Shown piece by piece: positions 15,824 to 31,675 of a stretch of 64,000 bases of DNA; within the stretch, counting starts at the first letter, position 1, and the number at the start of each line of letters is the position of its first letter. The position numbers were made by a program, and so were the translations under genes. Under the pieces are notes generated by a model that had not been told where the DNA came from, did no database searches, and was given only the letters and a program-made list of their open reading frames with translations. Source of the DNA: Alphaproteobacteria bacterium (GTDB lineage Bacteria; Pseudomonadota; Alphaproteobacteria; MPNO01; UBA830); contig OZ251539.1 of the NCBI GenBank assembly GCA_965243135.1, forward strand, positions 2,528,001 to 2,592,000. Direction: 5' to 3'.

Positions 15824-17116
15824 ATGGCCATCCCCCGCTATTCGCGACCCCGGATGACGGCGATCTGGGCGCCCGAAAACAGGTTCCGCATCTGGTTCGA
15901 AATCGAAGCGCTCGCCTGCGAGGCGCAGGCCGAGCTGGGCCTGATCCCCAAGGAAGCCGCGAAAGCGGTCCGCGAGCGCGGGCGGTTCGAGATCGAGCGC
16001 ATAGAAGAAATCGAGCGCGAAACCAGGCACGACGTGATCGCGTTCCTGACGAATCTCGCGGAACACGTCGGCGAGGAAGCCCGCTTCGTGCATCGGGGGA
16101 TGACCTCTTCCGACGTGCTCGATACCTGTCTCGCGGTTCAGCTCGCGCGCGCTTCCGACATTCTGCTCGAGGACCTCGACGGTCTGCTGGCGGCGCTCAG
16201 GTCCCGCGCCGAGGAGTTCAGGATGACGCCTACCATCGGGCGCAGTCACGGGATTCACGCGGAGCCGACCACGTTCGGAATCAAGCTGGCCGGGCATTAC
16301 GCGGAATTCGACCGCAATCGCGCGCGGTTGCGCGCCGCGCGCGCGGAAATCGCGGCCTGCGCCCTTTCCGGAGCCGTCGGCACCTTCGCGAACATCGACC
16401 CCCGCGTCGAAGCCTACGTGGCGAAAGCCCTGGGGCTGACTCCCGAACCGGTTTCCACCCAGATCGTGCCGCGCGACCGGCATGCGGCCTTTTTCGCGAC
16501 CCTCGCCGTCGTCGCGTCTTCGGCGGAACGCCTCGCCATCGAAATCCGGCACCTGCAGCGCACCGAGCTGCGCGAGGCGGAGGAGTTCTTTTCCGCCGGC
16601 CAAAAGGGTTCGTCGGCCATGCCGCACAAGCGCAACCCGGTGCTTACGGAAAACATGACGGGCCTCGCCCGCCTGGTGCGAGCGTGCTGCCCGCCCGCGC
16701 TGGAGAACGTGGCGCTCTGGCACGAGCGCGACATCTCGCATTCCTCCGTCGAACGCGTCATCGCGCCCGACGCGACGATCACGCTCGATTTCCTGCTGGC
16801 CCGGGCGGCGGGCGTCGTCGAGAACCTGGTCGTCTATCCGGAAAACATGCGGCGAAACCTCGACGCTCTCGGCGGCCTCGTCCATTCGCAGCGCGTGCTT
16901 CTCGCGCTCACGCAGGCGGGAATGAGCCGCGAGGAGGCCTACGCCGCCGTGCAGCGCAACGCCATGGCGACGTGGCGCGACGGCGGCTCGTTTCGGGATC
17001 GGCTCGAAGCGGATCCGGAAGTGCCGATCGACAAGGCGACCCTGAACGAGCTATTCGACCTCGGTTATCACCTGAAGCACGTCGACACCATCTTCGAACG
17101 GGTCTTCGGCCCGTAG
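15824..17116 (+). CDS. purB: Adenylosuccinate lyase
   Basis: IPRYSR, TRHDVIAF, GRSHGIHAEP, GSSAMPHKRNP, LWHERDISHSSVER. Confidence 0.97.
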   Translation: MAIPRYSRPRMTAIWAPENRFRIWFEIEALACEAQAELGLIPKEAAKAVRERGRFEIERIEEIERETRHDVIAFLTNLAEHVGEEARFVHRGMTSSDVLDTCLAVQLARASDILLEDLDGLLAALRSRAEEFRMTPTIGRSHGIHAEPTTFGIKLAGHYAEFDRNRARLRAARAEIAACALSGAVGTFANIDPRVEAYVAKALGLTPEPVSTQIVPRDRHAAFFATLAVVASSAERLAIEIRHLQRTELREAEEFFSAGQKGSSAMPHKRNPVLTENMTGLARLVRACCPPALENVALWHERDISHSSVERVIAPDATITLDFLLARAAGVVENLVVYPENMRRNLDALGGLVHSQRVLLALTQAGMSREEAYAAVQRNAMATWRDGGSFRDRLEADPEVPIDKATLNELFDLGYHLKHVDTIFERVFGP

Positions 17117-17118
17117 GG

Positions 17119-17445
17119 TCAGCCCTCTTCGGAGTCGATCTGCCGCTCCGCCTCGTCCAGCAACCGGTCCATTTCCCCGCGCAGCCGCGGCTCGTCCATG
17201 CCGATGCCGCGCGCAGCGAAGTCCGCGAGAACCTTGCGGACAACGTCGGCGTCGCCGGGTTCCTCGAAATCGGAGTGCACGACCTCCTTCGCGTATTCGG
17301 CGGCGGGGTCGCCGGAAAGGCCGAACCGCTCCGCCGCCCAGAGGCCGAGCAGCCGGTTGCGGCGCGCCGTGATGCGGAACAGCTTGTCCTGATCCCGCTT
17401 GTACTTGTGCTCGAAGCTTTTCTGGCGCTCTTCCAGAGTGGCCAT
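17119..17445 (-). CDS. DUF1476 family protein (alphaproteobacterial ATP synthase zeta-like inhibitor)
   Basis: LEERQKSFEHKY, ARRNRLLGLWAAE, DFEEPGDADVVRKV; usual position between purB and purC. Confidence 0.88.
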   Translation of the reverse strand: MATLEERQKSFEHKYKRDQDKLFRITARRNRLLGLWAAERFGLSGDPAAEYAKEVVHSDFEEPGDADVVRKVLADFAARGIGMDEPRLRGEMDRLLDEAERQIDSEEG

Positions 17446-17731
17446 GGTCGTTCCTTTTGCTGACGTCGGACTGCAGCGCCGCTCATAATCCGCGTTGGAT
17501 CGTCGGGTCACGATGCGAATGGCCACAATCTACAAAGGATCGTTTACCAACACATCGAAGCGCTAATCAAGTTCGACCTCCCAACGAAGCGTTCCCAAAA
17601 CGAATGGGCGCGACAACGAATCCGCACGCGCGCCGACCATCCGTTCGGCCGGCTCTCCCTTGTCCGGACGCTCCGTCGCCATTCGGCCTTCGATCGGGAA
17701 CGCGCCCTCCCCGGCAGCCGAATTCGGCAAA

Positions 17732-17881
17732 CGATTACCCGAGCGCGCGCGGCCGCGGGCGGAGTTTGAAGCGCCGTGACTTCGGTGTCGCCCGATTACC
17801 CGAGCGCGCGCGGCCGCGGGGGCAGGCCGCCCGCCGCGCCGTCGCTTTCTTTCCGATTACCCGAGCGCGCGCGGCCGCGGG
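17732..17881. CRISPR. Orphan CRISPR-like mini-array: 3 x 28-bp identical repeats and 2 x 33-bp unique spacers
   Basis: CGATTACCCGAGCGCGCGCGGCCGCGGG at 17732-17759, 17793-17820 and 17854-17881, an exact 61-bp period. Spacers are CGGAGTTTGAAGCGCCGTGACTTCGGTGTCGCC and GGCAGGCCGCCCGCCGCGCCGTCGCTTTCTTTC. The repeats are certain; CRISPR identity is inferred, as no cas genes are in the window. Confidence 0.6.
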
Positions 17882-18458
17882 CATCGTCGTCAGCGACGCC
17901 CCAATGATTTTCGTTCGCCGGCGCTCCGCCTATCGAACGGCCTGACGCATGAATGCCCGGCAGGCCGCAAGGCCCTCGTCTGCCCGATTGATCTTGGACG
18001 AGGGAGCCGATCATGATCGTCAAGGACGGAACGATATTCGACGGCCCGAATCGCTGGAATGACCAAACGGTCGGTAAACGCGAGACGAAAAACGCACGGT
18101 CGACACTCGTCGTCGTCTGGCCGTCGAACTCGACAAAACCCGTACGTCGAACCGCCCGGACAACGACAGGCGTTCCGTGCGCAGGCGTCAGAAAAACAGG
18201 GAAAGGTCGTCGGGACAACTTCGGAGGTCGCTCACGGAGCAACTTCCGTCCCGCCGCGGGGGATCCGCCGGAATTCCCGCTCGCCGTCACCGGGAAAACA
18301 GGCGTGTTCGCGGCATGACTTACGGCGAGAGTCGCCGCCGCATCCACGATCGGAGACAGCAGGCCAAGTCTCTGGTATCTTCGGAGCGGAAAAAGCCTGA
18401 ACCTGCCCTTCGCTTGCGCAGGCTTTCCCTGCTTGCGCATTTGGAAACGGTCTGACGG

Positions 18459-20438
18459 ATGGCCGAAAGCATCGATTTCGCGAACCCGATCTGGCAGATC
18501 GCCGACCTGCTGCGCGGCCCCTATCGCCCGTCGGAATACGAGCGCGTCATGCTGCCGATGACCGCGCTACGCCGCTTCGACTGCGCGCTCGCCCCCACCA
18601 AGGAGAAGGTCCTCGCGGATTACGAGAGCTTGAAGGACAAGCTCAAAGGCGCGCAGCTGAACGCAAAGCTGAACGCGACGGCGGGTCAGCGTTTCCACAA
18701 CCGCTCGCCGCTTGATTTCGACCGGCTGAAGGGCGATCCGGACCGGATCGCGCCGCGTCTTGCGAGCTACATCCAAGGCTTCTCGGCCAATGTGCGCCGC
18801 ATCTTCGAGTATTTCGAGTTCGGGAACGAGATCGACAGGATGCGCGAGGCGAACATTCTCTATCTCGTGGTTTCCCGATTCTGCGACGTGGACCTGCACC
18901 CGGGCAGGATCCCGAATCTGCGAATGGGCCTTATCTTCGAAGACCTGATCCGCCGCTTCAACGAGCTGGCAAACAAGACCGTGGGCGATCACTTCACGCC
19001 GCGCGAGGTGATCCGGCTAATGGTGAGCATCCTGTTCATCGAAGACGATGCGCTACTCGCGCGCCCCGGCACGGCGCACACGCTGCTCGATCCGGCCTGC
19101 GGCACCGGCGGCATGCTGGCCGAGGCGCAAAACTACCTGCGCGACCGCCACCCGAAGGCTCGGCTCTTCGTCTACGGCCAAGATTACAACAAGCGGGCCT
19201 ACGCCACCGCCGCCGCCGACATGCTGATGAAGCAGGTGGATAGCGGCGGCGACAACATCCGTTTCGGCGACAGTTTCCTCAAAGACAGGTTCAGGGGCCG
19301 AACCTTCGACTATTTCCTCACCAACCCGCCGTTCGGCATGGACTGGAAGAAGCAACGCAACAAGATCAGGCGCGAACACGAAAAGGGAGGTTTCGCCGGC
19401 CGCTTCGGCGCCGGCCTGCCGCGAGTGAGCGACGCCTCGCTGCTGTTCCTCCAGCACATGATCGCGAAATTCGAGAGGGTCGCGCCACGCGAGCGCAAGC
19501 ACGGCTCGCGCCTCGCCATCGTCTTCAGCGGGTCGCCGCTGTTCGCCGGCGGCGCGGGGTCGGGCGAGAGCGAGATCCGCAAGTGGATCATCGAGAACGA
19601 CTGGCTCGAAGCCATTGTCGCCCTGCCGGAGCGAATGTTCTACAATACCGGCATCGGCACCTATGTCTGGATCGTCACCAACCGCAAGGAGGAGCGGCGC
19701 AAGGGTTGGATCCAGCTCGTCGATGCACGCGATGCGTGGACCGGCGGCAGCGGCGCGGAGAGCAAGCGCAGCCTCGGCAACAAGCGCCGCCACATCGCCG
19801 GGAACCAGATCGACGAGATCGTGCGCCTCTACGGACGCTTCGAGGACGGCGAGCGCTCCAGGCTTTTCGACAATGCCGACTTCGGCTACACCCGCGTCAC
19901 CATCGAGCGCCCGCTGCGGCTGCGCTACCGGATGACGATCGACAGCAAGGCGCGTTTCCTCGACGCCTGCCCGGAATTGCTCGACGATGTGCAGGCCATC
20001 GACAAGGCGATCGGCGGCGAACCCTTGCCGGACTGGAATGCCGTCCGGGGCTGCATCCACGACCTGCTGCGCGAGCGCGGCGCACGCTGGACGCAAAAGG
20101 AATGGAAGCTCTTCCGCGATGTCTTCGCACGGAAGGATCCCGAGGCCGAGCCCGTCTCCGCGGGCAGTCGAGTCGGCGGGTGGGAACCCGACCCGGCGCT
20201 GCGCGATTTCGAGAACGTGCCGCTCAGGCAGAACATCGATGCCTATTTCGAGCGCGAGGTTCGACCGCACCTGCCCGATGCCTGGATGGACCGCGAGAAG
20301 GACAAGGTCGGCTACGAGATCGCCTTCAACCGCCATTTCCGCAAATACACGCCGCCGCGTTCGCTGGAGGAGATCGACGCGGACCTGAAGGCGGCGGAGA
20401 AAGAGATCGCGCGTCTGTTGCGGGAGGTAGTGATGTGA
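18459..20438 (+). CDS. hsdM: Type I restriction-modification methyltransferase subunit M
   Basis: IWQIADLLRG, HFTPREV, LDPACGTGGML, NPPF catalytic motif, MFYNTGIGTY, KVGYEI. Confidence 0.95.
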   Translation: MAESIDFANPIWQIADLLRGPYRPSEYERVMLPMTALRRFDCALAPTKEKVLADYESLKDKLKGAQLNAKLNATAGQRFHNRSPLDFDRLKGDPDRIAPRLASYIQGFSANVRRIFEYFEFGNEIDRMREANILYLVVSRFCDVDLHPGRIPNLRMGLIFEDLIRRFNELANKTVGDHFTPREVIRLMVSILFIEDDALLARPGTAHTLLDPACGTGGMLAEAQNYLRDRHPKARLFVYGQDYNKRAYATAAADMLMKQVDSGGDNIRFGDSFLKDRFRGRTFDYFLTNPPFGMDWKKQRNKIRREHEKGGFAGRFGAGLPRVSDASLLFLQHMIAKFERVAPRERKHGSRLAIVFSGSPLFAGGAGSGESEIRKWIIENDWLEAIVALPERMFYNTGIGTYVWIVTNRKEERRKGWIQLVDARDAWTGGSGAESKRSLGNKRRHIAGNQIDEIVRLYGRFEDGERSRLFDNADFGYTRVTIERPLRLRYRMTIDSKARFLDACPELLDDVQAIDKAIGGEPLPDWNAVRGCIHDLLRERGARWTQKEWKLFRDVFARKDPEAEPVSAGSRVGGWEPDPALRDFENVPLRQNIDAYFEREVRPHLPDAWMDREKDKVGYEIAFNRHFRKYTPPRSLEEIDADLKAAEKEIARLLREVVM

Positions 20439-21709
20439 AGGACGACGTGCAGATGTCCACCCTTCCGACGAAGCGCCTGAAGTATCTCGTGACGCTTCGA
20501 CGTTCGCCCGTACCGGAAAGCGGGGAAGCGCTTCCGTATATCGGACTTGAAAATATTGGTTCACGGACCGGAAGGCTCGTCGGTGACGCAGAAATCAGCG
20601 GCACAACGACTCCTTTAGCAGACGAGGGGGACAAACCATCGGGAAATTACTTTAAAAGAGGCGATGTGCTTTTTGGAACGCTTCGACCGTATCTTATGAA
20701 GGCATGGGTAGCTGAATTTCCCGGCCGTTGCACGACGGAAGCCCTCGTCATGACTCCTCATGCGATCGAGCCCCGATTCTTACGCAGCGTTTGTCTGTCG
20801 TCTGCGTTCATCGATTCGGTCGATGCGTCAACCTTTGGATCGAAGATGCCTCGCGCTGAATGGAGCTTCATCGGGAATATGCCTGTGCCCGTTCCGACTT
20901 GGAAAAGGCAACATGCCGTCGCCGACTACCTCGATCAAGAGACGGCGCGGCTGGATGCGCTGGTCGCGGCAAAGGAACGCCTGCTGGAGTTGCTTGCGGA
21001 AAAGCGCCAAGCGCTCATCATCCATGCCCTCACTAGAGGCATCGAACTTGGCGCAACGTCTCGCGTTTCCGGCATGTCTTGGCCCGGTGAAATTCCAGCG
21101 CATTGGAGAATGGGCAGACTCAAGGATTTTGGATCCCTTATCGTCGGCGCCGGGTTCTCGCATGAATTTCAGGGCGTCGAGGGAGAGATCCTGCCGTTCT
21201 ACAAGGTTGGAGACCTTGCGACCTCGAGAGACGATCAGCATATTGAACAACCATTGAACACAGTCTCATCTGAGACGGCGACGAGGTCGCGTGCGCGTGT
21301 GGTTCCAGAGGGCGCTTATGCCAAGACAGGAGCGGCACCGTTGTTGAATAGACGCCAGATCACGACATCTCCATGCGTCATTGACAACAACATGACAGCC
21401 GATATCCCAAGCAAAGGGAACCTTACTTCCGGGTGGGCATTCTACTGGACCAGCATCCTCGATTTCGGAATGCTTGCCAATCTGGGGGCCGTGCCTTCAC
21501 TGAGCGAGGGAGATCAAGCGCGAATGCCTATCGCGATTCCACCTGTAGACGAACAACGCGCCATCGTCGACCACCTCGACCGCGAAACGGCACGGCTCGA
21601 CGAACTGGCGGCCAAGACGCGAGAAACCGTCGCGCTGCTCAAGGAACGCCGGACCGCCCTTATCTCGGCGGCGGTCACCGACCAAATGCACGTGGAGAAC
21701 GTCGCGTGA
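20435..21709 (+). CDS. hsdS: Type I restriction-modification specificity subunit S
   Basis: GTGA overlap with hsdM. Two TRDs, each followed by a conserved helix (QHAVADYLDQETARLDAL...LAEKRQALI and EQRAIVDHLDRETARLDEL...LKERRTALISAAVT). Confidence 0.9.
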   Translation: MKDDVQMSTLPTKRLKYLVTLRRSPVPESGEALPYIGLENIGSRTGRLVGDAEISGTTTPLADEGDKPSGNYFKRGDVLFGTLRPYLMKAWVAEFPGRCTTEALVMTPHAIEPRFLRSVCLSSAFIDSVDASTFGSKMPRAEWSFIGNMPVPVPTWKRQHAVADYLDQETARLDALVAAKERLLELLAEKRQALIIHALTRGIELGATSRVSGMSWPGEIPAHWRMGRLKDFGSLIVGAGFSHEFQGVEGEILPFYKVGDLATSRDDQHIEQPLNTVSSETATRSRARVVPEGAYAKTGAAPLLNRRQITTSPCVIDNNMTADIPSKGNLTSGWAFYWTSILDFGMLANLGAVPSLSEGDQARMPIAIPPVDEQRAIVDHLDRETARLDELAAKTRETVALLKERRTALISAAVTDQMHVENVA

Positions 21710-22968
21710 GGGTCGCGCGCCTCGAACTGGCGAATGTCCGCGCGGTCGAGGCGGCCGAGTTTCGCTTCCAAGACGGCTTCAACCTCGTCGTCGGGGTCAA
21801 CGGGGTCGGTAAAACCACCGTCCTCGACGCCTTGGCCGTCTGCCTTTCCGATGTGGTCCGGCGCGTCAACACGCTTCGGAGTCGTACACGGCGTTTCGAG
21901 GTCGGAGACATCCGAATGGGCGCCGGCGCCCTGGATGTCGCATGCGACATCGAAAACGTCGAAAAAAATGAACGGCACAGTTACGCGCTCCATAAGCCTC
22001 GCGAGACCGCCGCGCCACGGGCGAAACAGGCAGGCATGCCTCGCGAACAGGTTCATGATACGCCCGTAAAGGCGGAGTTCGTCGGAGAAGCGCCGCGGGT
22101 CGCCACGGGTAACGAGCCGGAAGGCCGTCCGTTGGCCGTTCTGTTCTCGAGGATCCGGGCGATTCCAGAAAAGGCGCCCGCGAAGGGCACGGCGCCGGGA
22201 GGCTTGGAAGCCGCGTTTGGGGGTGCCCTGTTGAGCCGGTCGCTGCGCCTCGGCGAGCTCGCAGCATGGATACGGGTGCAGGAGGCGTTGAAGCCGGAGC
22301 GGCCCGCGGCGGGGCATGTATTGGATGCCATGGAGGATGCGGTAAGGCGCTTTCTCCCCGGTTTCCGAAACCTGCGCGTGGATGGCGAAGGCGCGAGCGG
22401 CAGTTCCCTCCTGATCGACCGCGATGCCACGACGCTGCCGGTTCGACTGCTCTCGGACGGCGAGCGGGGCGTTCTGGCGATGATGCTCGACCTGACTCGC
22501 CGGTTGGCGCAAGCCAACCCGGAGATGAAAGATCCCGCCGCCGAGGCCGAGGCGATCGTCCTGATCGACGAGATCGAGCTTCACCTCCATCCGGCGTGGC
22601 AGCGACGGATCGTAACCAACCTCACCAAGACATTTCCGAAATGTCAGTTCATCGCGACGACTCATTCGCCGCAGGTGATCGGCGAGGTGGAGCAAGATCG
22701 GATTCAAATCATGGCCGATGGCGAGGTCCATTCGCCAGCCCATTCTTTCGGCGTCGATTCCAGCCGGGTGCTGGAAGAAATCATGGGCGCGCCCCCGAGG
22801 ACGGAAAAGGTGAAAGAGCTGCTTTCGAAGATATCCCGGACGATCGGCAACGATCGGTACGACGACGCCCGCAAACTGTTAGCCGGACTGTCGGGCCACC
22901 TGGGAGAGAACGACCCCGAGGTGACGCGTATCCTGACTCTGCTGGACTTCATGACGAGCGACGCATGA
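21706..22968 (+). CDS. ptuA: ABC/AAA ATPase, PtuA (Septu)-like
   Basis: GTGA overlap with hsdS. Walker A GVNGVGKT, signature LSDGER, Walker B VLIDEIELHLHP, FIATTHSP, C-terminal FGVDSSRVLEEIMG. Confidence 0.8.
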   Translation: MRVARLELANVRAVEAAEFRFQDGFNLVVGVNGVGKTTVLDALAVCLSDVVRRVNTLRSRTRRFEVGDIRMGAGALDVACDIENVEKNERHSYALHKPRETAAPRAKQAGMPREQVHDTPVKAEFVGEAPRVATGNEPEGRPLAVLFSRIRAIPEKAPAKGTAPGGLEAAFGGALLSRSLRLGELAAWIRVQEALKPERPAAGHVLDAMEDAVRRFLPGFRNLRVDGEGASGSSLLIDRDATTLPVRLLSDGERGVLAMMLDLTRRLAQANPEMKDPAAEAEAIVLIDEIELHLHPAWQRRIVTNLTKTFPKCQFIATTHSPQVIGEVEQDRIQIMADGEVHSPAHSFGVDSSRVLEEIMGAPPRTEKVKELLSKISRTIGNDRYDDARKLLAGLSGHLGENDPEVTRILTLLDFMTSDA

Positions 22969-23597
22969 GAGCGATCACGAAGGGACCGGAGCCGCAAAGC
23001 CTCACCGCCCATCGTCAGGCTGCGCATAGCGACTACGGCAACTACCAAGACAAGGACGCGCTTCGGGAAGCCTTGGCGACCGAACAGCGAGGGCTATGCT
23101 GCTACTGCATGGAACGCATCCGACCCGATAAAATGAAGATAGAGCATTGGCGATGTCAGGCCCGTTACCCAGATGAGCAGTTGAGCTATCGCAACCTTCT
23201 CGGCGTCTGCTTGGGCGGTGAAGGGCAACCGCCCCCCTTCCAGCACTGCGACACGAAGAAGGGCGATGCCGACCTGCGCTGGAATCCCGCCAATCCCGCC
23301 CATGCGATCGAAGCGCGGGTGCGATATGATCTCAACGGCACCATCAAATCCGATGATGAGACGTTCAATAATCAGTTGAACGAAATTCTGAATCTCAATC
23401 TTGCCTTTCTCAAAAACAACCGCAAAGTCGTTCTGGATGCCTTGTTACATTGGTACAAGCAGCGGAAACCCGTGTCGCCAAAGATATTCGAAAATCAAAG
23501 AGACAAATACATCGTCGAGGGCGGTGAGCTTACTCCTCACTATCAAGTCGCGGTTTGGTGGCTGCAGCAGAAACTCAGGAGGTGCAGCGATGGGTAG
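22965..23597 (+). CDS. ptuB: HNH endonuclease, PtuB / TIGR02646-like
   Basis: ATGA overlap with the ATPase. MRAITKGPEP, EQRGLCCYC, KIEH, YRNLLGVC, HCDTKKG, LNLN. Confidence 0.8.
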   Translation: MRAITKGPEPQSLTAHRQAAHSDYGNYQDKDALREALATEQRGLCCYCMERIRPDKMKIEHWRCQARYPDEQLSYRNLLGVCLGGEGQPPPFQHCDTKKGDADLRWNPANPAHAIEARVRYDLNGTIKSDDETFNNQLNEILNLNLAFLKNNRKVVLDALLHWYKQRKPVSPKIFENQRDKYIVEGGELTPHYQVAVWWLQQKLRRCSDG

Positions 23598-23649
23598 CGC
23601 GCATGATGCGGAAACGGTCACTCGGACACCAAATCCGGGGCTGTGCGCT

Positions 23650-23817
23650 TCAAGGTTGAACGGGCGGCTTGCGGTCGCGGCAGGTCTCCCGTTCCTCGGC
23701 CGCCAGCCGGACGATGTATTTCTTGTGCATGAAAGCGCCTTTATGTTGCATACATCAAACTTCTCGATAGCAAATACTATACGAAAAGTCTAATTTCTTA
23801 TTTGGATAAAGCATCAG
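23650..23817 (-). mobile_element. IS630-family remnant (one end plus the first ~20 codons of the transposase)
   Basis: Minus-strand ATG at 23730 gives MHKKYIVRLAAEERETC, a typical IS630 N-terminus, preceded by an AT-rich end-like sequence; truncated soon after. Confidence 0.55.
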
Positions 23818-24161
23818 CAATTCCCGTTAAGGCTCTAATCCTTGGAAAATATTAGGTCTCAGAAAAATTTTTCGTAGACTTTTCTAGGTAGTGCGATTTA
23901 CCTTCGAATGAGGGATTTGTCGCGGCGGCTTGTTCATTGGTAATTTCGCTTTCTCGGCGCACCTTCCGGACATGCGGCCGCCTCAGCGGGAATCGCTGAT
24001 AAAACGCTAGCGAGGCTTCGCCTCAGACCCACGAGGCATGCGCGCTCCCCGGACAGGACTCCAGTCGCTGTTCCGCTCTGCGGCCGAAGCCGCGTCCATA
24101 GTCGCACAAAGGCGTCAGTGGCCATGGCCATGTGGGGAACTCATCGACTGGAGTCCATGCC

Positions 24162-25728
24162 GTGAAGATAGCACGATCCGTTGCCGAGGTCCTGTCGGAC
24201 CACACGACCTTGGAGCTCGAATGCATCGACCGCCTTTACCTGAACGTTTACGTTCCCCTGCTGCAGACCGGAGCTGGAGTATCGCACTTCTTCCGCCACA
24301 TCCGGGGCAACCCTGTACCATCATCCGTGCTCATGGAGCCGATGACCCGTCGCTTCGTCAAGGGTTTGGAGCGCTTCGCACGGCAACATGAAATCGATAT
24401 CGTCAAATTCGAGCGCAAGGAACGCAAGGACGACCGCACGAAGGAATACCTAAGTCGGTGGCAAGGCGACGAAGGAATACTGTACATCGGTAAAGCTCAA
24501 GAACGCGCCCGTGTGCTCCGTACCGAACGACGATACGATCCTGTCACGGGCACTCCGTACCCTTGGTTGACCAACAGTACGGCGATGGTGAATCACTATT
24601 ACATTTACATTTTCGACGAAGACTTTGGCCCACTGTTTTTGAAGTTTTGTTCGTACTTTCCATACAATGCCAAGCTCTGTCTGAATGGGCACGAATACCT
24701 CAAGACGCAATTAACAAAGCGCGGCATTGCTTTTGAGGCACTGGATAACGGCATTTTGCGTTGCGACGACCATGAGGTCATGAACGCCATTTCGCAAGAG
24801 ATCACATCGGCATGTATCGACGCCCTGTTACGCAAATGGTTGGCACGTCTGCCGCATCCTTTCACCGCCCAGGATCGCATCCATGGTATTCGTTACGATA
24901 TCTCAATTCTACAAGCCGAGTTCGCACTAACCTGCGTGTTCGACCGACCGATTCAAGGTCGTGTGTTCTTTGAGGAAGTAGGAATGTTGACATTGGCCGT
25001 CCTGACCATGTGCAGTTGATCTTTGAGCGTCGAATCACCAGACGCACTCCCTCACGGTGCCGTGTCATTACCGAAGGTGTTGTGCCCTCGTTGCATGTGG
25101 ACTACAAACACTCCCGTATCAAGCAGTACCATAAGGAAGGCCGTGCGCTAAGAACAGAAACAGTCATTAACGACACTTACGACTTCCGCGTCGGCAGACG
25201 ACTATGCAACCTCGATGCTCTAAAGCAAATCGGCTTCGCAGCCAATCGACGCCTCCTGCGCGTCCAACGCATCAGTCACGACAGCCTTCTCGGAACCGAT
25301 ACCTTCGACCAACTTCATCAACCTGTCATCGTGGACAATCGCCGTGTTTCCGCTCTGCGATTCGGAGAACCTCGTGTCGTTGCTGTCCGCTTTGCTGGCT
25401 TTTCGCCTGCTTCCCGCAGGCTTCGCCAACCGGCAATTACGAGAACATGCGGCACCCCTGATGGGTTTGTCCACCGATGCTTATTCACCTAACCGTGCCA
25501 CATCTACGAAGGCTGCGGTTGCGTGGATTGGTTGAACGCATCCCGCACTCACATCGTTACCGCGTAACCGGAACCGGAATAAGGATTGCCCTATGTTATC
25601 AACGGACCCATCGGCGCGTTCTCAGCCCCGCTCTTGGCGCAGTCTTCGACGAACAAACCGGTCCACTCATCCAGAGATTCGATCACGAGATTCAACGCCT
25701 CTGGGAAGGGCATTCCGTTGCCATGTAA
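24162..25728 (+). pseudogene. Frameshifted gene of an uncharacterised mobile element (putative transposase / Rep-like protein with C-terminal wHTH)
   Basis: Continuous homology across four reading-frame pieces: TLELECIDRLYLNVYVP, VNHYYIYIFDEDFGP...CSYFPY, IKQYHKEGRALRTETVIND, GFANRQLR, LRRLRLRGLVERIPHSHRYRVT. Frameshifts near 24980, 25380 and 25500. Visibly lower GC than the host. Confidence 0.75.
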
Positions 25729-25768: not shown

Positions 25769-26662
25769 CTAGTCTCCTTCGACCACTACGTTCTCGATTC
25801 CGCCAAGGCCTTCGATCTCGATCCGGCATACGTCGCCGGGAGAAAGGTAGGTGCCGTGCGGATGACCGACTCCGCTTCCGGTGCCGGTCGCGATGACGTC
25901 TCCCGGCAACAGCGTGAAGTGCTCCGAGAGAGCTTCGATCTGCTCGACGATGGTGAACACCATCCATTTCGAATTGCTGTCCTGCTTGAGTTCGCCGTTG
26001 ACCCAGGTGCGAAGCGACAGAGACTGCGGATCTTCGACCTCGCTTTTCGGCGTGATCCAGGGCCCCATCGGCGCGGAACCGTCGAACGATTTCTGCCACA
26101 ACCAGTCGGAACTCATGGCGGGCCAGTCCTCGCGCCTCAGATAGTCGCGGGCGGACAAGTCGTTGATGACGGTGTAGCCGACGACGTGATCCATCGCGTC
26201 GGCCGCGCGGACGTTGCGAGCCGCCTTGCCGATGACGACGGCGATCTCGGCTTCCCAATCGAGTTTTCGCGTTATCCGCGGACGGCGAATCGGCTCGCCG
26301 GTTCCGATCACGCCCTGGGGCGAGATCTTGCTGAAGAAATACGGCTTGATCTTCGACTTGTCGACGTCCCTGCCGCTCATTTCCCGAAAGTGATCCTGAT
26401 AATTCGCGGCGGCGCAGAAAATGTTGGCCGGATAGAGAATCGGCGCGGCGAGGACGAGTTCCGCGAGCGGCCGGCCCGCCTTGCCGCCGGCCGCCAGTTC
26501 CTCCAGACGCGGCGCGGACGCCTCCCAGTCCTGCAGCAGGGACAGCGTGGAACATGCCGCGCCGAAGGCATCGGCGACGTCAATCACCGAATCGTCCCGA
26601 AGCAGACCCGCGCGCGGCTCGTCCGCCGGGTTCGCCCTGTAGCTCAAGAGTCGAAACGACAT
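25769..26662 (-). CDS. Fumarylacetoacetate hydrolase family protein
   Basis: LDWEAEIAVVIG, GYTVINDLSARD, KSFDGSAPMGP, LLPGDVIATGT. Confidence 0.93.
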   Translation of the reverse strand: MSFRLLSYRANPADEPRAGLLRDDSVIDVADAFGAACSTLSLLQDWEASAPRLEELAAGGKAGRPLAELVLAAPILYPANIFCAAANYQDHFREMSGRDVDKSKIKPYFFSKISPQGVIGTGEPIRRPRITRKLDWEAEIAVVIGKAARNVRAADAMDHVVGYTVINDLSARDYLRREDWPAMSSDWLWQKSFDGSAPMGPWITPKSEVEDPQSLSLRTWVNGELKQDSNSKWMVFTIVEQIEALSEHFTLLPGDVIATGTGSGVGHPHGTYLSPGDVCRIEIEGLGGIENVVVEGD

Positions 26663-31404: not shown

Positions 31405-31675
31405 CCGGGTTGTCGCCGAGCGCGGACTTTCCGGGTTGTCGCCGAGCGCGGACTTTCCGGGTTGTCGCCGAGCGCGGACTTTCCGGGTTGTCGCCGAGCG
31501 CGGACTTTCCGGATTGTCGCCGAGCGCGGACTTTCCGGATTGTCGCCGAGCGCGGACTTTCCGGATTGTCGCCGAGCGCGGACTTTCCGGATTGTCGCCG
31601 AGCGCGGACTTTCCGGATTGTCGCCGAGCGCGGACTTTCCGGATTGTCGCCGAGCGCGGACTTTCCGGATTGTCG
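31405..31675 (+). repeat. Tandem repeat, 10 full copies plus 11 bp of a 26-bp unit CCGG(G/A)TTGTCGCCGAGCGCGGACTTT
   Basis: Units start at 31405, 31431, 31457 and 31483 (G variant) and 31509, 31535, 31561, 31587, 31613 and 31639 (A variant), with a partial unit at 31665. Confidence 0.97.

Follow-up and report, generated by a model that had tools for sequence, protein, structure and literature searches.

Three identical 28-nt repeats separated by two 33-nt spacers, located upstream of an hsdM-hsdS-ptuA-ptuB operon and far from cas genes, raise the question of how such a small array originated and whether it serves any function. The array was noticed in a first-pass annotation of the window, i.e., the whole analyzed stretch of 64,000 nucleotides, and its position at 17732-17881 was reproduced here. 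Our analysis indicates that the mini-array is very probably a neo-CRISPR locus, generated by off-target spacer integration by the type I-E Cas1-Cas2 proteins of the same genome.

Structure and surroundings of the mini-array

The array and its neighbors are listed in Table 1. TRF determined a period of 61 with 2.5 copies. The locus displays the defining properties of a CRISPR array, namely identical direct repeats of fixed length and unrelated spacers of near-constant length; a degenerate terminal repeat is absent, all three repeats being identical. Repeats 2 and 3 are preceded by a C, which represents a 29th common base, and a reading as 29 + 32 is equally valid. The annotation had described the 61-bp period as being of the type I-E kind and the reverse-complement strand as loosely I-E-like in layout. 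The first statement agrees with the resident type I-E array, named array C, which shows the same 28 + 33 geometry, and the second was borne out when the repeats were oriented via the consensus of the sister repeats described below.

Table 1. Coordinates of the mini-array and of neighboring features in the window.
Feature	Position	Strand	Remark
ATPase-inhibitor zeta gene	17119-17446	-	borders the left flank
Left flank, intergenic (zeta gene to array)	17447..17731	.	contig of the related strain (run X5) matches up to exactly 17731
Repeat 1	17732..17759	-	trailer-end copy if the minus orientation holds; presumed copy of the 28-bp target site
Spacer 1, 33 nt	17760..17792	-	self-derived; older spacer under minus orientation
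Repeat 2	17793..17820	-	identical to repeats 1 and 3
Spacer 2, 33 nt	17821..17853	-	newer spacer under minus orientation
Repeat 3	17854..17881	-	adjoins the leader-like side under minus orientation
Right flank, unique DNA (array to IS fragment)	17882..17979	.	leader-like side under minus orientation
Degraded internal part of a ~2.3-kb IS transposase gene	17980..18362	+	outside the array, bounds it
hsdM	18459-20438	+	context only
hsdS	20435-21709	+	context only
ptuA	~21.7 kb-22968	+	context only
ptuB	~22965-23597	+	context only

The tract of lower GC content at about 17520-17620, previously proposed as a possible leader, is indeed present; it lies on the trailer side at a distance of about 110 bp from the array, and its reading as a leader is not supported. 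A leader common to the mini-array and array C was considered and rejected: similarity to the leader of array C was found on neither flank, and only 5-9 of the last 30 nt were identical. Furthermore, neither an adjacent cas operon nor an AT-rich leader of the canonical I-E kind was found beside the array, its neighbors being the zeta gene, the IS fragment, and hsdM. All Cas1-family matches of this genome fall within 5.26-5.31 Mb, roughly 2.7 Mb from the array, in accordance with the earlier description of an isolated array. The start of hsdM was confirmed at 18459, 578 bp downstream of the array, followed by the genes for HsdS, PtuA, and PtuB; no link between the array and hsdM, hsdS, ptuA, or ptuB was found. 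The stretch 17447-18458 has no counterpart in four genomes of the same genus. The IS fragment has 14 other matches in the genome, seven of which span most of it (71-76% identity) and seven of which are shorter (73-84%). Derivation of the array or its flanks from this IS was rejected, as the alignment to the full IS is limited to 17983-18388.

The repeat is not a dispersed, REP-like element; only three copies exist in the genome (≤3 mismatches, both strands). At the same threshold it was found in 0 of 25 genomes of the family, 12 of which are <90% complete or >5% contaminated, and the exact 28-mer gave 0 matches in each of three public collections (genome_contigs, metagenome_contigs, and viral_contigs). 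Hence, a canonical cas-linked array with this repeat, which the annotation had considered, was encountered neither in the genome nor in the 25 family genomes and the three collections. A search for a periodic 11-mer pattern yielded 2 + 29 loci, which by inspection turned out to be unrelated short tandem repeats; one of them (L029) is an unrelated two-copy repeat of low GC content. The whole window contained no Rfam match at gathering thresholds. The stem-loop and 3' handle of a canonical I-E repeat were not recognized, as 14 of 28 positions agreed and the fold was no better than that of shuffled sequences. The array also does not resemble a mini-array by which a mobile element borrows the Cas proteins of its host: its repeat and the I-E repeat of the host share 50% identity, phage or plasmid matches were not obtained, and the flanks are chromosomal.

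Spacer origin and strain variation

Spacer 1 is identical in 33 of 33 positions to the chromosomal site G000:C1:3798571-3798603, and the flanks of that site do not match; the match is thus bounded exactly by the repeats, and for this reason the array cannot be a product of chance. The protospacer is located within a gene encoding a 978-aa ABC transporter, 1.25 Mb from the array. The 33-mer was found in 0 of the 25 family genomes (≤3 mismatches). Orthologues of the ABC gene in the same genus share only 56-58% protein identity; it follows that spacer 1 was acquired within this lineage. A CAST-like homing spacer was rejected from the layout, the target being separated from the array by 1.25 Mb and the scanned ORFs showing no family of transposition genes. 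The annotation had found no spacer match inside the window, which is correct, as the match of spacer 1 lies outside. The search against phage and plasmid sets and the own genome which it had proposed was successful for spacer 1 and gave nothing for spacer 2, whose best match in the own genome comprised 16 nt and which had no exact match in viral_contigs. A blastn comparison of 17700-17915 with plasmids and phages returned only matches with E ≥ 0.01.

Sequencing runs gave further information on variation among strains. Contigs of runs X4 and X8 show the array without differences where it is covered. In the metagenome run X5, which represents a related strain, a contig of 1155 nt matches 16744-17731, where the fit ends. 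When its remaining 168 letters were placed at 17854-18021, two depth bins were reproduced to two decimals (5.41 and 8.83), with about 4 units left over in the bin 17684-17840. From this depth arithmetic, the X5 strain appears to lack 17732-17853, i.e., 122 bp or 2 x 61, and to keep one 28-mer. Spacer content, the invariance of which would have spoken against a CRISPR array, hence appears to differ in X5 and shows no difference in the X4 and X8 contigs. Contigs of run X2 stop at 17760 and resume at 17854, and repeated 30-mers nearby occur only inside spacer 1; such a break would be produced if alleles with and without the expansion were mixed in a graph with k=31, an assumed word length, and it is taken as a hint only.

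The resident I-E system and further loci with a 61-bp period

The genome comprises 6.1 Mb and contains three cas-linked arrays in the region 5.26-5.31 Mb. Array C (type I-E; G000 5302391-5307163) consists of 78 perfect 28-nt repeats, with 75 of its 77 spacers being 33 nt and two being 34 nt long; the I-E operon is complete as open frames (cas3, cse1, cse2, cas7, cas5, cas6e, cas1, cas2). A compatible adaptation module, I-E cas1 and cas2 together with a 28 + 33 array, is thus encoded in the same genome. The other two cas-linked arrays have repeats of 36-37 nt. Comparison of array C with plasmids by megablast gave no match, and consequently external protospacers defining the I-E PAM were not available.

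The genome was scanned for perfect repeats of ≥24 nt at fixed distance (d), excluding the three big arrays. At d=61, 22 pairs were obtained, compared with one at d=60 and none at each of d=55-59 and d=62. A relaxed scan (≥25/28 identical repeats, unlike spacer, d=52-70) revealed 27 pairs at d=61; the remaining distances gave 0-1 pairs each if not a multiple of 3, and 0-8 if a multiple of 3. The pairs form 11 non-canonical loci, including the mini-array, with 10 distinct repeats; besides these, one small array with the true I-E repeat was found. Most sister loci lie outside long intact frames, as judged by a crude GC3 test of gene context. One of them now comprises 10 spacers, including AT-rich and foreign-looking ones. 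The 28 + 33 geometry of array C and an excess of pairs at d=61 only point to the resident I-E system, the mini-array repeat being only 14/28 alike. The annotation had also proposed a non-Cas RNA linked to HsdMS-PtuAB, either a guide or an antitoxin; this proposal is not supported, because the ten further 28 + 33 loci sit at unrelated chromosomal places, and the position of the array beside hsdM looks coincidental for the same reason.

Among the spacers of these loci, 13 of 24 (54%) match the own genome, eight of them at 33/33, two at 32/33, and three partially. In array C, self-matching spacers account for 2 of 77 (Fisher p = 2.5e-8). These two are accompanied by AAG, but the orientation of the array would place it on the other side; we assume that flipped spacers survived. 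Protospacer flanks were compared by eye, with repeats oriented by the neo-repeat consensus. Of the 10 full-length matches, nine have A at position -2 (p = 1.3e-6) and five have AA (p = 2.5e-5), which amounts to an AAG-like bias. The mini-array follows this pattern only in minus orientation; the protospacer of spacer 1 does not carry the full AAG, its flank reading A, C, and then G as the first spacer base.

The repeats of the non-canonical loci resemble the I-E repeat loosely, with a mean of 13.4/28 identical positions; random 28-mers of the genome averaged 8.97, or 9.61 if GC-rich, and none of 200,000 resamples reached 13.4. For the mini-array alone the value is 14/28, which about 2% of random 28-mers reach in their best orientation. 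A consensus built from the neo repeats without array C retains the I-E register CC.C.C...GG...CC.

Several sister loci have paralogues representing the unexpanded allele. The paralogue of the locus at 2992257 contains a single 28-mer at 2794036-2794063, with 88/88 identity over the 28-mer and its flanks; single-copy 28-mers are likewise present in the paralogues of the loci at 2742314 and 1912721, and in that of the locus at 2208565, the latter read by eye from a side-by-side alignment. Additionally, another copy of the 1912721 repeat family gained a different spacer at the homologous site. The mini-array itself has no paralogue in the genome, and hence no internal empty site.

Origin and possible function of the mini-array

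These observations suggest the following route. The I-E Cas1-Cas2 proteins, which we infer to be the agent, would have acted twice at a site outside CRISPR arrays that is loosely similar to their own repeat, each time adding a 33-bp spacer. Each insertion would duplicate the 28-bp target, leaving three identical repeats with a period of 61 bp, and one of the spacers would have been captured from the cell's own chromosome. Such a self spacer could be tolerated, since a working crRNA is probably not produced from the pseudo-repeat. The mini-array is probably inert, as judged only from its weak hairpin, and probably unrelated to HsdMS-PtuAB.

The array might instead be functional, i.e., transcribed, processed, and used in trans by I-E or another effector for defense or for regulation of the ABC-transporter gene, or it might act as an RNA partner of HsdMS-PtuAB. 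The perfect 33-nt match of spacer 1 to a chromosomal gene and the position upstream of the hsdM operon fit this explanation, and the 10-spacer sister locus shows that such loci persist and grow. We regard it as improbable, however. The hairpin on either strand is no more stable than those of shuffled sequences (z = 0.76 and 1.05), and the repeat agrees with the resident one in only 14 of 28 positions; taken together, these two properties make use in trans by Cas proteins unlikely. No Rfam family was matched, the sole promoter-like site found lies 240 bp off at the start of the zeta gene, and the sister loci are not associated with hsdM or ptuAB. Furthermore, a perfect self-match combined with a working effector is expected to be toxic, and spacers of which 54% are self-derived look like an unselected record.

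Still less credible is descent from a canonical I-E array with a different repeat, which would be either native, with its cas operon lost, perhaps by IS-mediated deletion after a self-targeting spacer had been gained, or imported together with the HsdMS-PtuAB island. Self-targeting spacers are linked to degraded CRISPR systems, the array is separated by 98 bp from an IS fragment, the region 17447-18458 is missing from the four same-genus genomes, and the reverse complement is loosely I-E-like in layout. Nevertheless, a remnant of this kind does not account for a repeat absent from every other record searched, for three identical repeats without a degenerate terminal copy, or for a spacer from this lineage's own DNA. 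A longer array would also not predict that a related strain keeps, as it seems to, one 28-mer between the same flanks, and the ten sister loci, some with empty-site paralogues, demonstrate that an in situ route exists in this genome. It is hardly conceivable that the locus is no CRISPR array at all and consists of protein-binding iterons or of a tandem duplication with diverged 33-bp parts. Three identical, regularly spaced intergenic sites adjoining a mobile-element fragment would agree with that idea; however, divergence of a tandem duplicate cannot produce a repeat-bounded 33/33 match to a distant gene, neither inverted nor further copies of the site exist in the genome, and the 61-bp period is common only to the I-E array and the sister loci.

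Implications and comparison with known systems

Off-target integration by I-E Cas1-Cas2, which best explains the mini-array, may extend to the genome as a whole. On balance, we tend to view this genome as a natural example of CRISPR arrays arising de novo, and repeatedly so. Its I-E module would have seeded at least 11 non-canonical loci; among them are a hotspot used independently in two members of the same repeat family and a locus that has expanded to 10 spacers. Three more loci may stem from a second resident system, the repeats of which are 37 nt long, and in the largest locus a new repeat family may be developing into a working array. The interference machinery probably does not read the non-canonical loci. 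If so, they preserve naive adaptation free of selection, with self DNA making up 54%, with a relaxed AAG-like motif, and with a possible hotspot of source DNA at 4.66-4.94 Mb. Being half self as compared to 2/77 in the canonical array, such an unselected sample of captured DNA bears on the autoimmune purging of self-acquisition.

For the question of how new CRISPR arrays and repeat families arise, these loci form a natural data set containing filled and empty sites side by side, reuse of a hotspot, growth from 1 to 10 spacers, and a sequence logo of the targets accepted by a native I-E integrase. Moreover, array finders can be misled by such by-products, as can interpretations of orphan arrays as guide RNAs, regulators, or partners of defense genes.

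The mini-array has in common with array C the 28-nt repeat, the 33-nt spacer, a GC-rich and partly palindromic core, and the AAG-like bias of the protospacer flank; it differs in its repeat sequence and in lacking adjacent cas genes, an AT-rich leader, a strong Cas6e-type hairpin, and a degenerate terminal repeat. Self-targeting CRISPR spacers are spacers perfectly matching the host's own chromosome. Unlike these in general, the self-match described here resides in a pseudo-array probably without a functional crRNA and looks neutral rather than related to autoimmunity or regulation.

The 2020 survey by Shmakov et al. reportedly showed that most isolated arrays have repeats identical or similar to those of a cas-adjacent array. 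Like isolated or orphan arrays, the mini-array belongs to a genome whose cas genes lie elsewhere, far from the array; in contrast to such arrays, its repeat is only 14/28 like the resident one and unique in the collections searched. According to the passage citing it, the same work proposed three origins of isolated arrays, off-target spacer acquisition being among them (Shmakov et al. 2020, CRISPR J 3:535; via PMC13142298).

Neo-CRISPR loci as such are already known; their scale in one natural genome is unusual. A description of many such loci in one natural genome was not found in the literature searched, outside which most subscription journals and supplements lay. The citing passages describe neo-CRISPR loci as arising from off-target integration by over-expressed type I-E Cas1-Cas2 of E. 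coli (Nivala 2018, Nat Microbiol 3:310; via 10.1101/148544, PMC7054753, PMC11788318, PMC6698737), and natural evidence, from two other species, is called 'circumstantial' in the passage citing Nivala, Shipman, and Church 2018 (same sources). The loci reported here resemble those of E. coli in the spacer-sized insert, the duplicated target of repeat length outside arrays, the presumed I-E integrase, and the repeatability of the event, which can build up a small array. In contrast to E. coli, the present case concerns a natural genome without over-expression. Its non-canonical loci number at least 11, and one of them holds 10 spacers; in addition, there are empty-site paralogues, an apparently empty related strain, and spacers of which half are self-derived.

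Structure and surroundings of the mini-array

The host genome consists of a single contig of 6.10 Mb with a G+C content of 65%, on which the window occupies positions 2528001-2592000. In the mini-array (window 17732-17881), repeats 2 and 3 have one additional upstream base in common; a 29+32 description is equally valid. Unique DNA of 98 bp separates its right end from the fragment of an IS transposase gene, which has 14 other matches in the genome, seven covering most of the fragment (71-76% identity) and seven being shorter (73-84%). The parent IS is about 2.3 kb long, with full copies e.g. at G000:C1 531998-534288 (G000, host genome), and its transposase carries a C-terminal motif of the HWEIENR...DEDRRR type. 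One match (5288426-5288870) is located about 150 bp outside the 37-nt-repeat array, on its trailer side.

Beyond the IS fragment, hsdM, hsdS, ptuA and ptuB were found; ptuB is followed, within window 18459-25700, by a tract of about 2 kb with low G+C (52-55%), whose ORFs gave no Pfam or PADLOC match. No hsdR was seen ahead of the FAA-hydrolase gene (25769-26662); therefore, the genes represent a type I methylase/specificity pair plus Septu without a nearby restriction subunit. At window 31405-31675, 26 bp are repeated in tandem (10.4 copies, 99% matches).

Features of the mini-array region (window coordinates) and non-canonical loci with 28+33 build (genome coordinates of their starts)
Feature	Position	Strand	Description
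purB	15824-17116		left neighbour of the mini-array
ATPase-inhibitor zeta-subunit gene	17119-17446	minus	left neighbour of the mini-array
Repeat 1	17732 (start)		28 nt, identical to repeats 2 and 3
Spacer 1	17760-17792		33 nt
Repeat 2	17793 (start)		28 nt
Spacer 2	17821-17853		33 nt
Repeat 3	17854 (start)		28 nt
IS transposase gene fragment	17980-18362		degraded, internal; right of the mini-array
Locus	385672		4 repeats
Locus	973349		2 repeats
Locus	1912721		2 repeats
Locus	1922849		2 repeats, exact duplicate of 1912721
Locus	2208565		3 repeats
Locus	2510624		3 repeats
Locus	2545732		3 repeats, the mini-array
Locus	2742314		11 repeats
Locus	2992257		2 repeats
Locus	4477871		2 repeats
Locus	5621020		2 repeats

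The 28-mer of the mini-array occurs in the genome only in these three copies (≤3 mismatches), none of them inverted. All 25 other genomes analysed from the family lacked it, as did, for the exact word, the genome, metagenome and viral contig collections; a periodic pattern derived from the least GC-rich part of the repeat retrieved unrelated tandem repeats only. Spacer 1 is identical over 33/33 positions to 3798571-3798603 of the host genome, the identity ending at the repeat borders. The target is located inside a gene for a 978-aa ABC transporter with ordinary local G+C, in a cluster encoding a C39-peptidase ABC exporter, a HlyD-type protein and a radical-SAM enzyme. Orthologues of the same genus show just 56-58% protein identity and the 33-mer is present in no relative's genome; hence, the source of spacer 1 was DNA of this same lineage. 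Spacer 2 gave no match in the own genome, viral contigs, plasmid records or phage records.

Resident CRISPR-Cas systems and sister loci

The region at 5.26-5.31 Mb contains three large arrays and as many Cas1 genes. The type I-E locus is complete, with cas3, cse1, cse2, cas7, cas5, cas6e, cas1 and cas2 all present as open frames. Its array C (5302391-5307163) comprises 78 perfect 28-nt repeats and a degenerate one at the far end; 75 of the 77 spacers are 33 nt and two are 34 nt long. The remaining two large arrays have repeats of 36-37 nt, and type I-E is the sole resident system built 28+33 like the mini-array. The 61-bp period had been read correctly as type I-E in the first-pass annotation. 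The mini-array repeat and the I-E repeat are alike at 14 of 28 positions. A small, isolated canonical array with a true I-E repeat (25/28 to array C) was observed at 4812991-4813140, 0.49 Mb from the cas operon; one of its spacers matches the chromosome at 30/31.

A scan of the chromosome minus the three large arrays, in which perfect repeats (≥24 nt) were sought at each fixed spacing between 45 and 90 bp, revealed 22 pairs at a distance of 61, with repeat lengths of 26-32 nt throughout, none at 55-59 and 62, and a single one at 60; the remaining pairs were mostly at multiples of 3, resembling coding tandem repeats. When conditions were relaxed (≥25/28 identical, adjacent 33 nt dissimilar), 27 pairs were found at 61 bp and 0-1 at each other non-multiple of 3 in the range 52-70. 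The 61-bp pairs constitute 12 loci, namely the canonical I-E array (4812991) and 11 non-canonical loci (Table). Each of the latter has a repeat of its own, but 1922849 exactly duplicates 1912721, resulting in 10 distinct loci. Locus 2742314 contains 10 spacers, one present twice, and two repeat variants.

Self-matching spacers amount to 13/24 in the 10 distinct loci (8 at 33/33, 2 at 32/33, 3 partial) as compared to 2/77 in array C (33/33 at 4133743, 30/33 at 5244039; Fisher p = 2.5e-8). For the sister loci, i.e. with the mini-array left out, 12/22 spacers match the chromosome elsewhere; all of these loci are located outside the window. At the 11-repeat locus, some of the spacers without a match are AT-rich, with a G+C content of 36-39%, and look foreign. 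Both self-spacers of array C have an exact AAG, although the array orientation would predict it on the other side; we assume that only such flipped self-spacers, useless for interference, persist in a working array. Five of the 13 sources of non-canonical spacers lie inside 280 kb (4658567-4935997), which was equalled in 1.8% of 20,000 simulations; the cumulative GC skew has its minimum at 5.16 Mb and its maximum at 1.65 Mb, and this source cluster is not the skew maximum.

Paralogous sequence was available for four sister loci. The paralogue of 2992257 (2794036-2794063) contains a single 28-mer and is identical at 88/88 positions, comprising the 28-mer and 30 nt on each side; that of 2742314 has a single copy (77/88), several paralogues of the 1912721 family likewise, and the paralogue of 2208565 near 3781337 has a single related copy, as seen when the sequences were compared by eye. 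As read from these sequence pairs, the comparison shows directly that the arrival of a 33-bp insert also duplicates 28 bp already present at the site, which is the signature of Cas1-Cas2 integration. Furthermore, 973349 is another copy of the 1912721 family in which the homologous site received another spacer, and this site is therefore an integration hotspot. The filled copy at 1912721 is itself duplicated 10 kb away (1922849), and this repeat family is dispersed.

Additionally, three loci (2242318, 3444841, 5399736) have a single insert of 35-39 nt and a perfect duplication of 36-37 nt, close in build to the second resident array, whose repeats are 37 nt and whose spacers are 37-44 nt long. 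One of their inserts matches the chromosome at 565156 (35/35) and two are AT-rich; these loci may be off-target products of the second adaptation module.

Target and flank preferences and alleles in other samples

The ten repeats, each in its best orientation, share a mean of 13.4/28 positions with the I-E repeat. Control 28-mers reached 8.97 (random genome) and 9.61 (random with ≥20 G+C), and 13.4 was never attained when sets of ten were resampled 200,000 times. When the ten repeats were oriented solely against one another, array C not being used, a consensus was obtained with CC at 8-9, C at 11, 13 and 15, GGG at 20-22 and CC at 27-28, in the register of the I-E repeat. This solution places the mini-array repeat on the minus strand, in agreement with the first-pass view that its reverse complement is loosely I-E-like. 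The leader proposed at 17520-17620 then falls beyond the trailer end, and this tract more probably represents DNA upstream of the zeta gene.

When the repeats were oriented in this way, the base at the second position ahead of the protospacer was A in 9/10 full-length matches (p = 1.3e-6), and the flanking dinucleotide was AA in 5/10 (p = 2.5e-5); G as first spacer base, also in 5/10, was not significant. AAG is the known type I-E motif, and the flank bias of the non-canonical loci is a relaxed form of it. Spacer 1 of the mini-array fits this pattern as A, C, G on the minus strand only.

The window sequence was partly present in 11 sequencing runs, four of which (X2, X4, X5, X8) were compared as contigs. 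Contigs of X4 (17770-17987) and X8 (17547-17802) showed no difference; both contain the allele of the window at low depth. The sponge metagenome run X5 contains a related strain with flanks about 2-4% different. The first 987 letters of its contig (1155 nt, depth 5.9) correspond to 16744-17731, the agreement breaking off immediately ahead of repeat 1. The remaining 168 letters were modelled at 17854-18021. This assumed placement predicts 5.9 x 144/157 = 5.41 for bin 17841-17997 and (24 x 5.9 + 150 x 8.3)/157 = 8.83 for bin 17998-18154; the tabulated depths were 5.41 and 8.83. Hence, the X5 strain would possess flank, one 28-mer and flank, and the depth arithmetic suggests that it is without exactly 17732-17853 (122 bp = 2 x 61); about 4 depth units in bin 17684-17840 are left unexplained by this model. 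Contigs of X2 stop at 17760 and resume at 17854, a break not explained by the genome's repeated 30-mers. Provided that these contigs derive from a k=31 graph, they give a hint that expanded and unexpanded alleles coexist in that sample.

Origin of the mini-array and comparison with known arrays

The mini-array is a CRISPR product although its repeat stands alone, and the resident type I-E system very probably generated it by off-target integration. The starting point would have been a GC-rich, partly palindromic intergenic stretch of 28 bp, with the zeta gene on one side and the IS fragment on the other, in register with the I-E repeat core; this stretch would have been accepted as a target by the resident I-E Cas1-Cas2. 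One event would have inserted the chromosome-derived spacer 1, with its non-consensus flank, and duplicated the 28-mer; another would have inserted spacer 2 at the repeat copy adjoining 17882. That spacer 1 preceded spacer 2 is conditional on the minus orientation. The three repeats would be identical because these events were recent; the related X5 strain seems to be unexpanded.

The first-pass annotation had considered an orphan array used in trans or an RNA partner of HsdMS-PtuAB. The hairpin of the pseudo-repeat was no better than that of shuffled sequence and a search of Rfam gave no family match; hence, it is unlikely that Cas6e processes this repeat or that Cascade uses it, and use of the mini-array in trans by Cas proteins is likewise unlikely, judging from sequence. 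Lack of processing and use would explain the tolerated perfect self-match and the abundance of self spacers at the non-canonical loci. The link to HsdMS-PtuAB found no support because the sister loci are located at unrelated places.

Off-target integration by the E. coli type I-E system is reported to create new arrays (Nivala et al. 2018). According to passages citing that study (10.1101/148544, PMC7054753, PMC11788318, PMC6698737), off-target events, detected under over-produced Cas1-Cas2, spawn 'neo-CRISPR arrays' and might spontaneously generate CRISPR loci, the evidence for two other species being circumstantial. Among three origins proposed for arrays lying apart from cas genes is off-target acquisition (Shmakov et al. 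2020, as quoted in PMC13142298). In the literature collection searched, which is incomplete, no account of a genome of this type was found. The significance lies more in the wider picture of the genome to which the mini-array led than in the mini-array by itself. The mini-array is of the same kind as the E. coli neo-CRISPR arrays; as compared to known arrays of this kind, many loci in one natural genome, direct filled/empty pairs, an integration hotspot and one locus grown to 10 spacers seem unusual.
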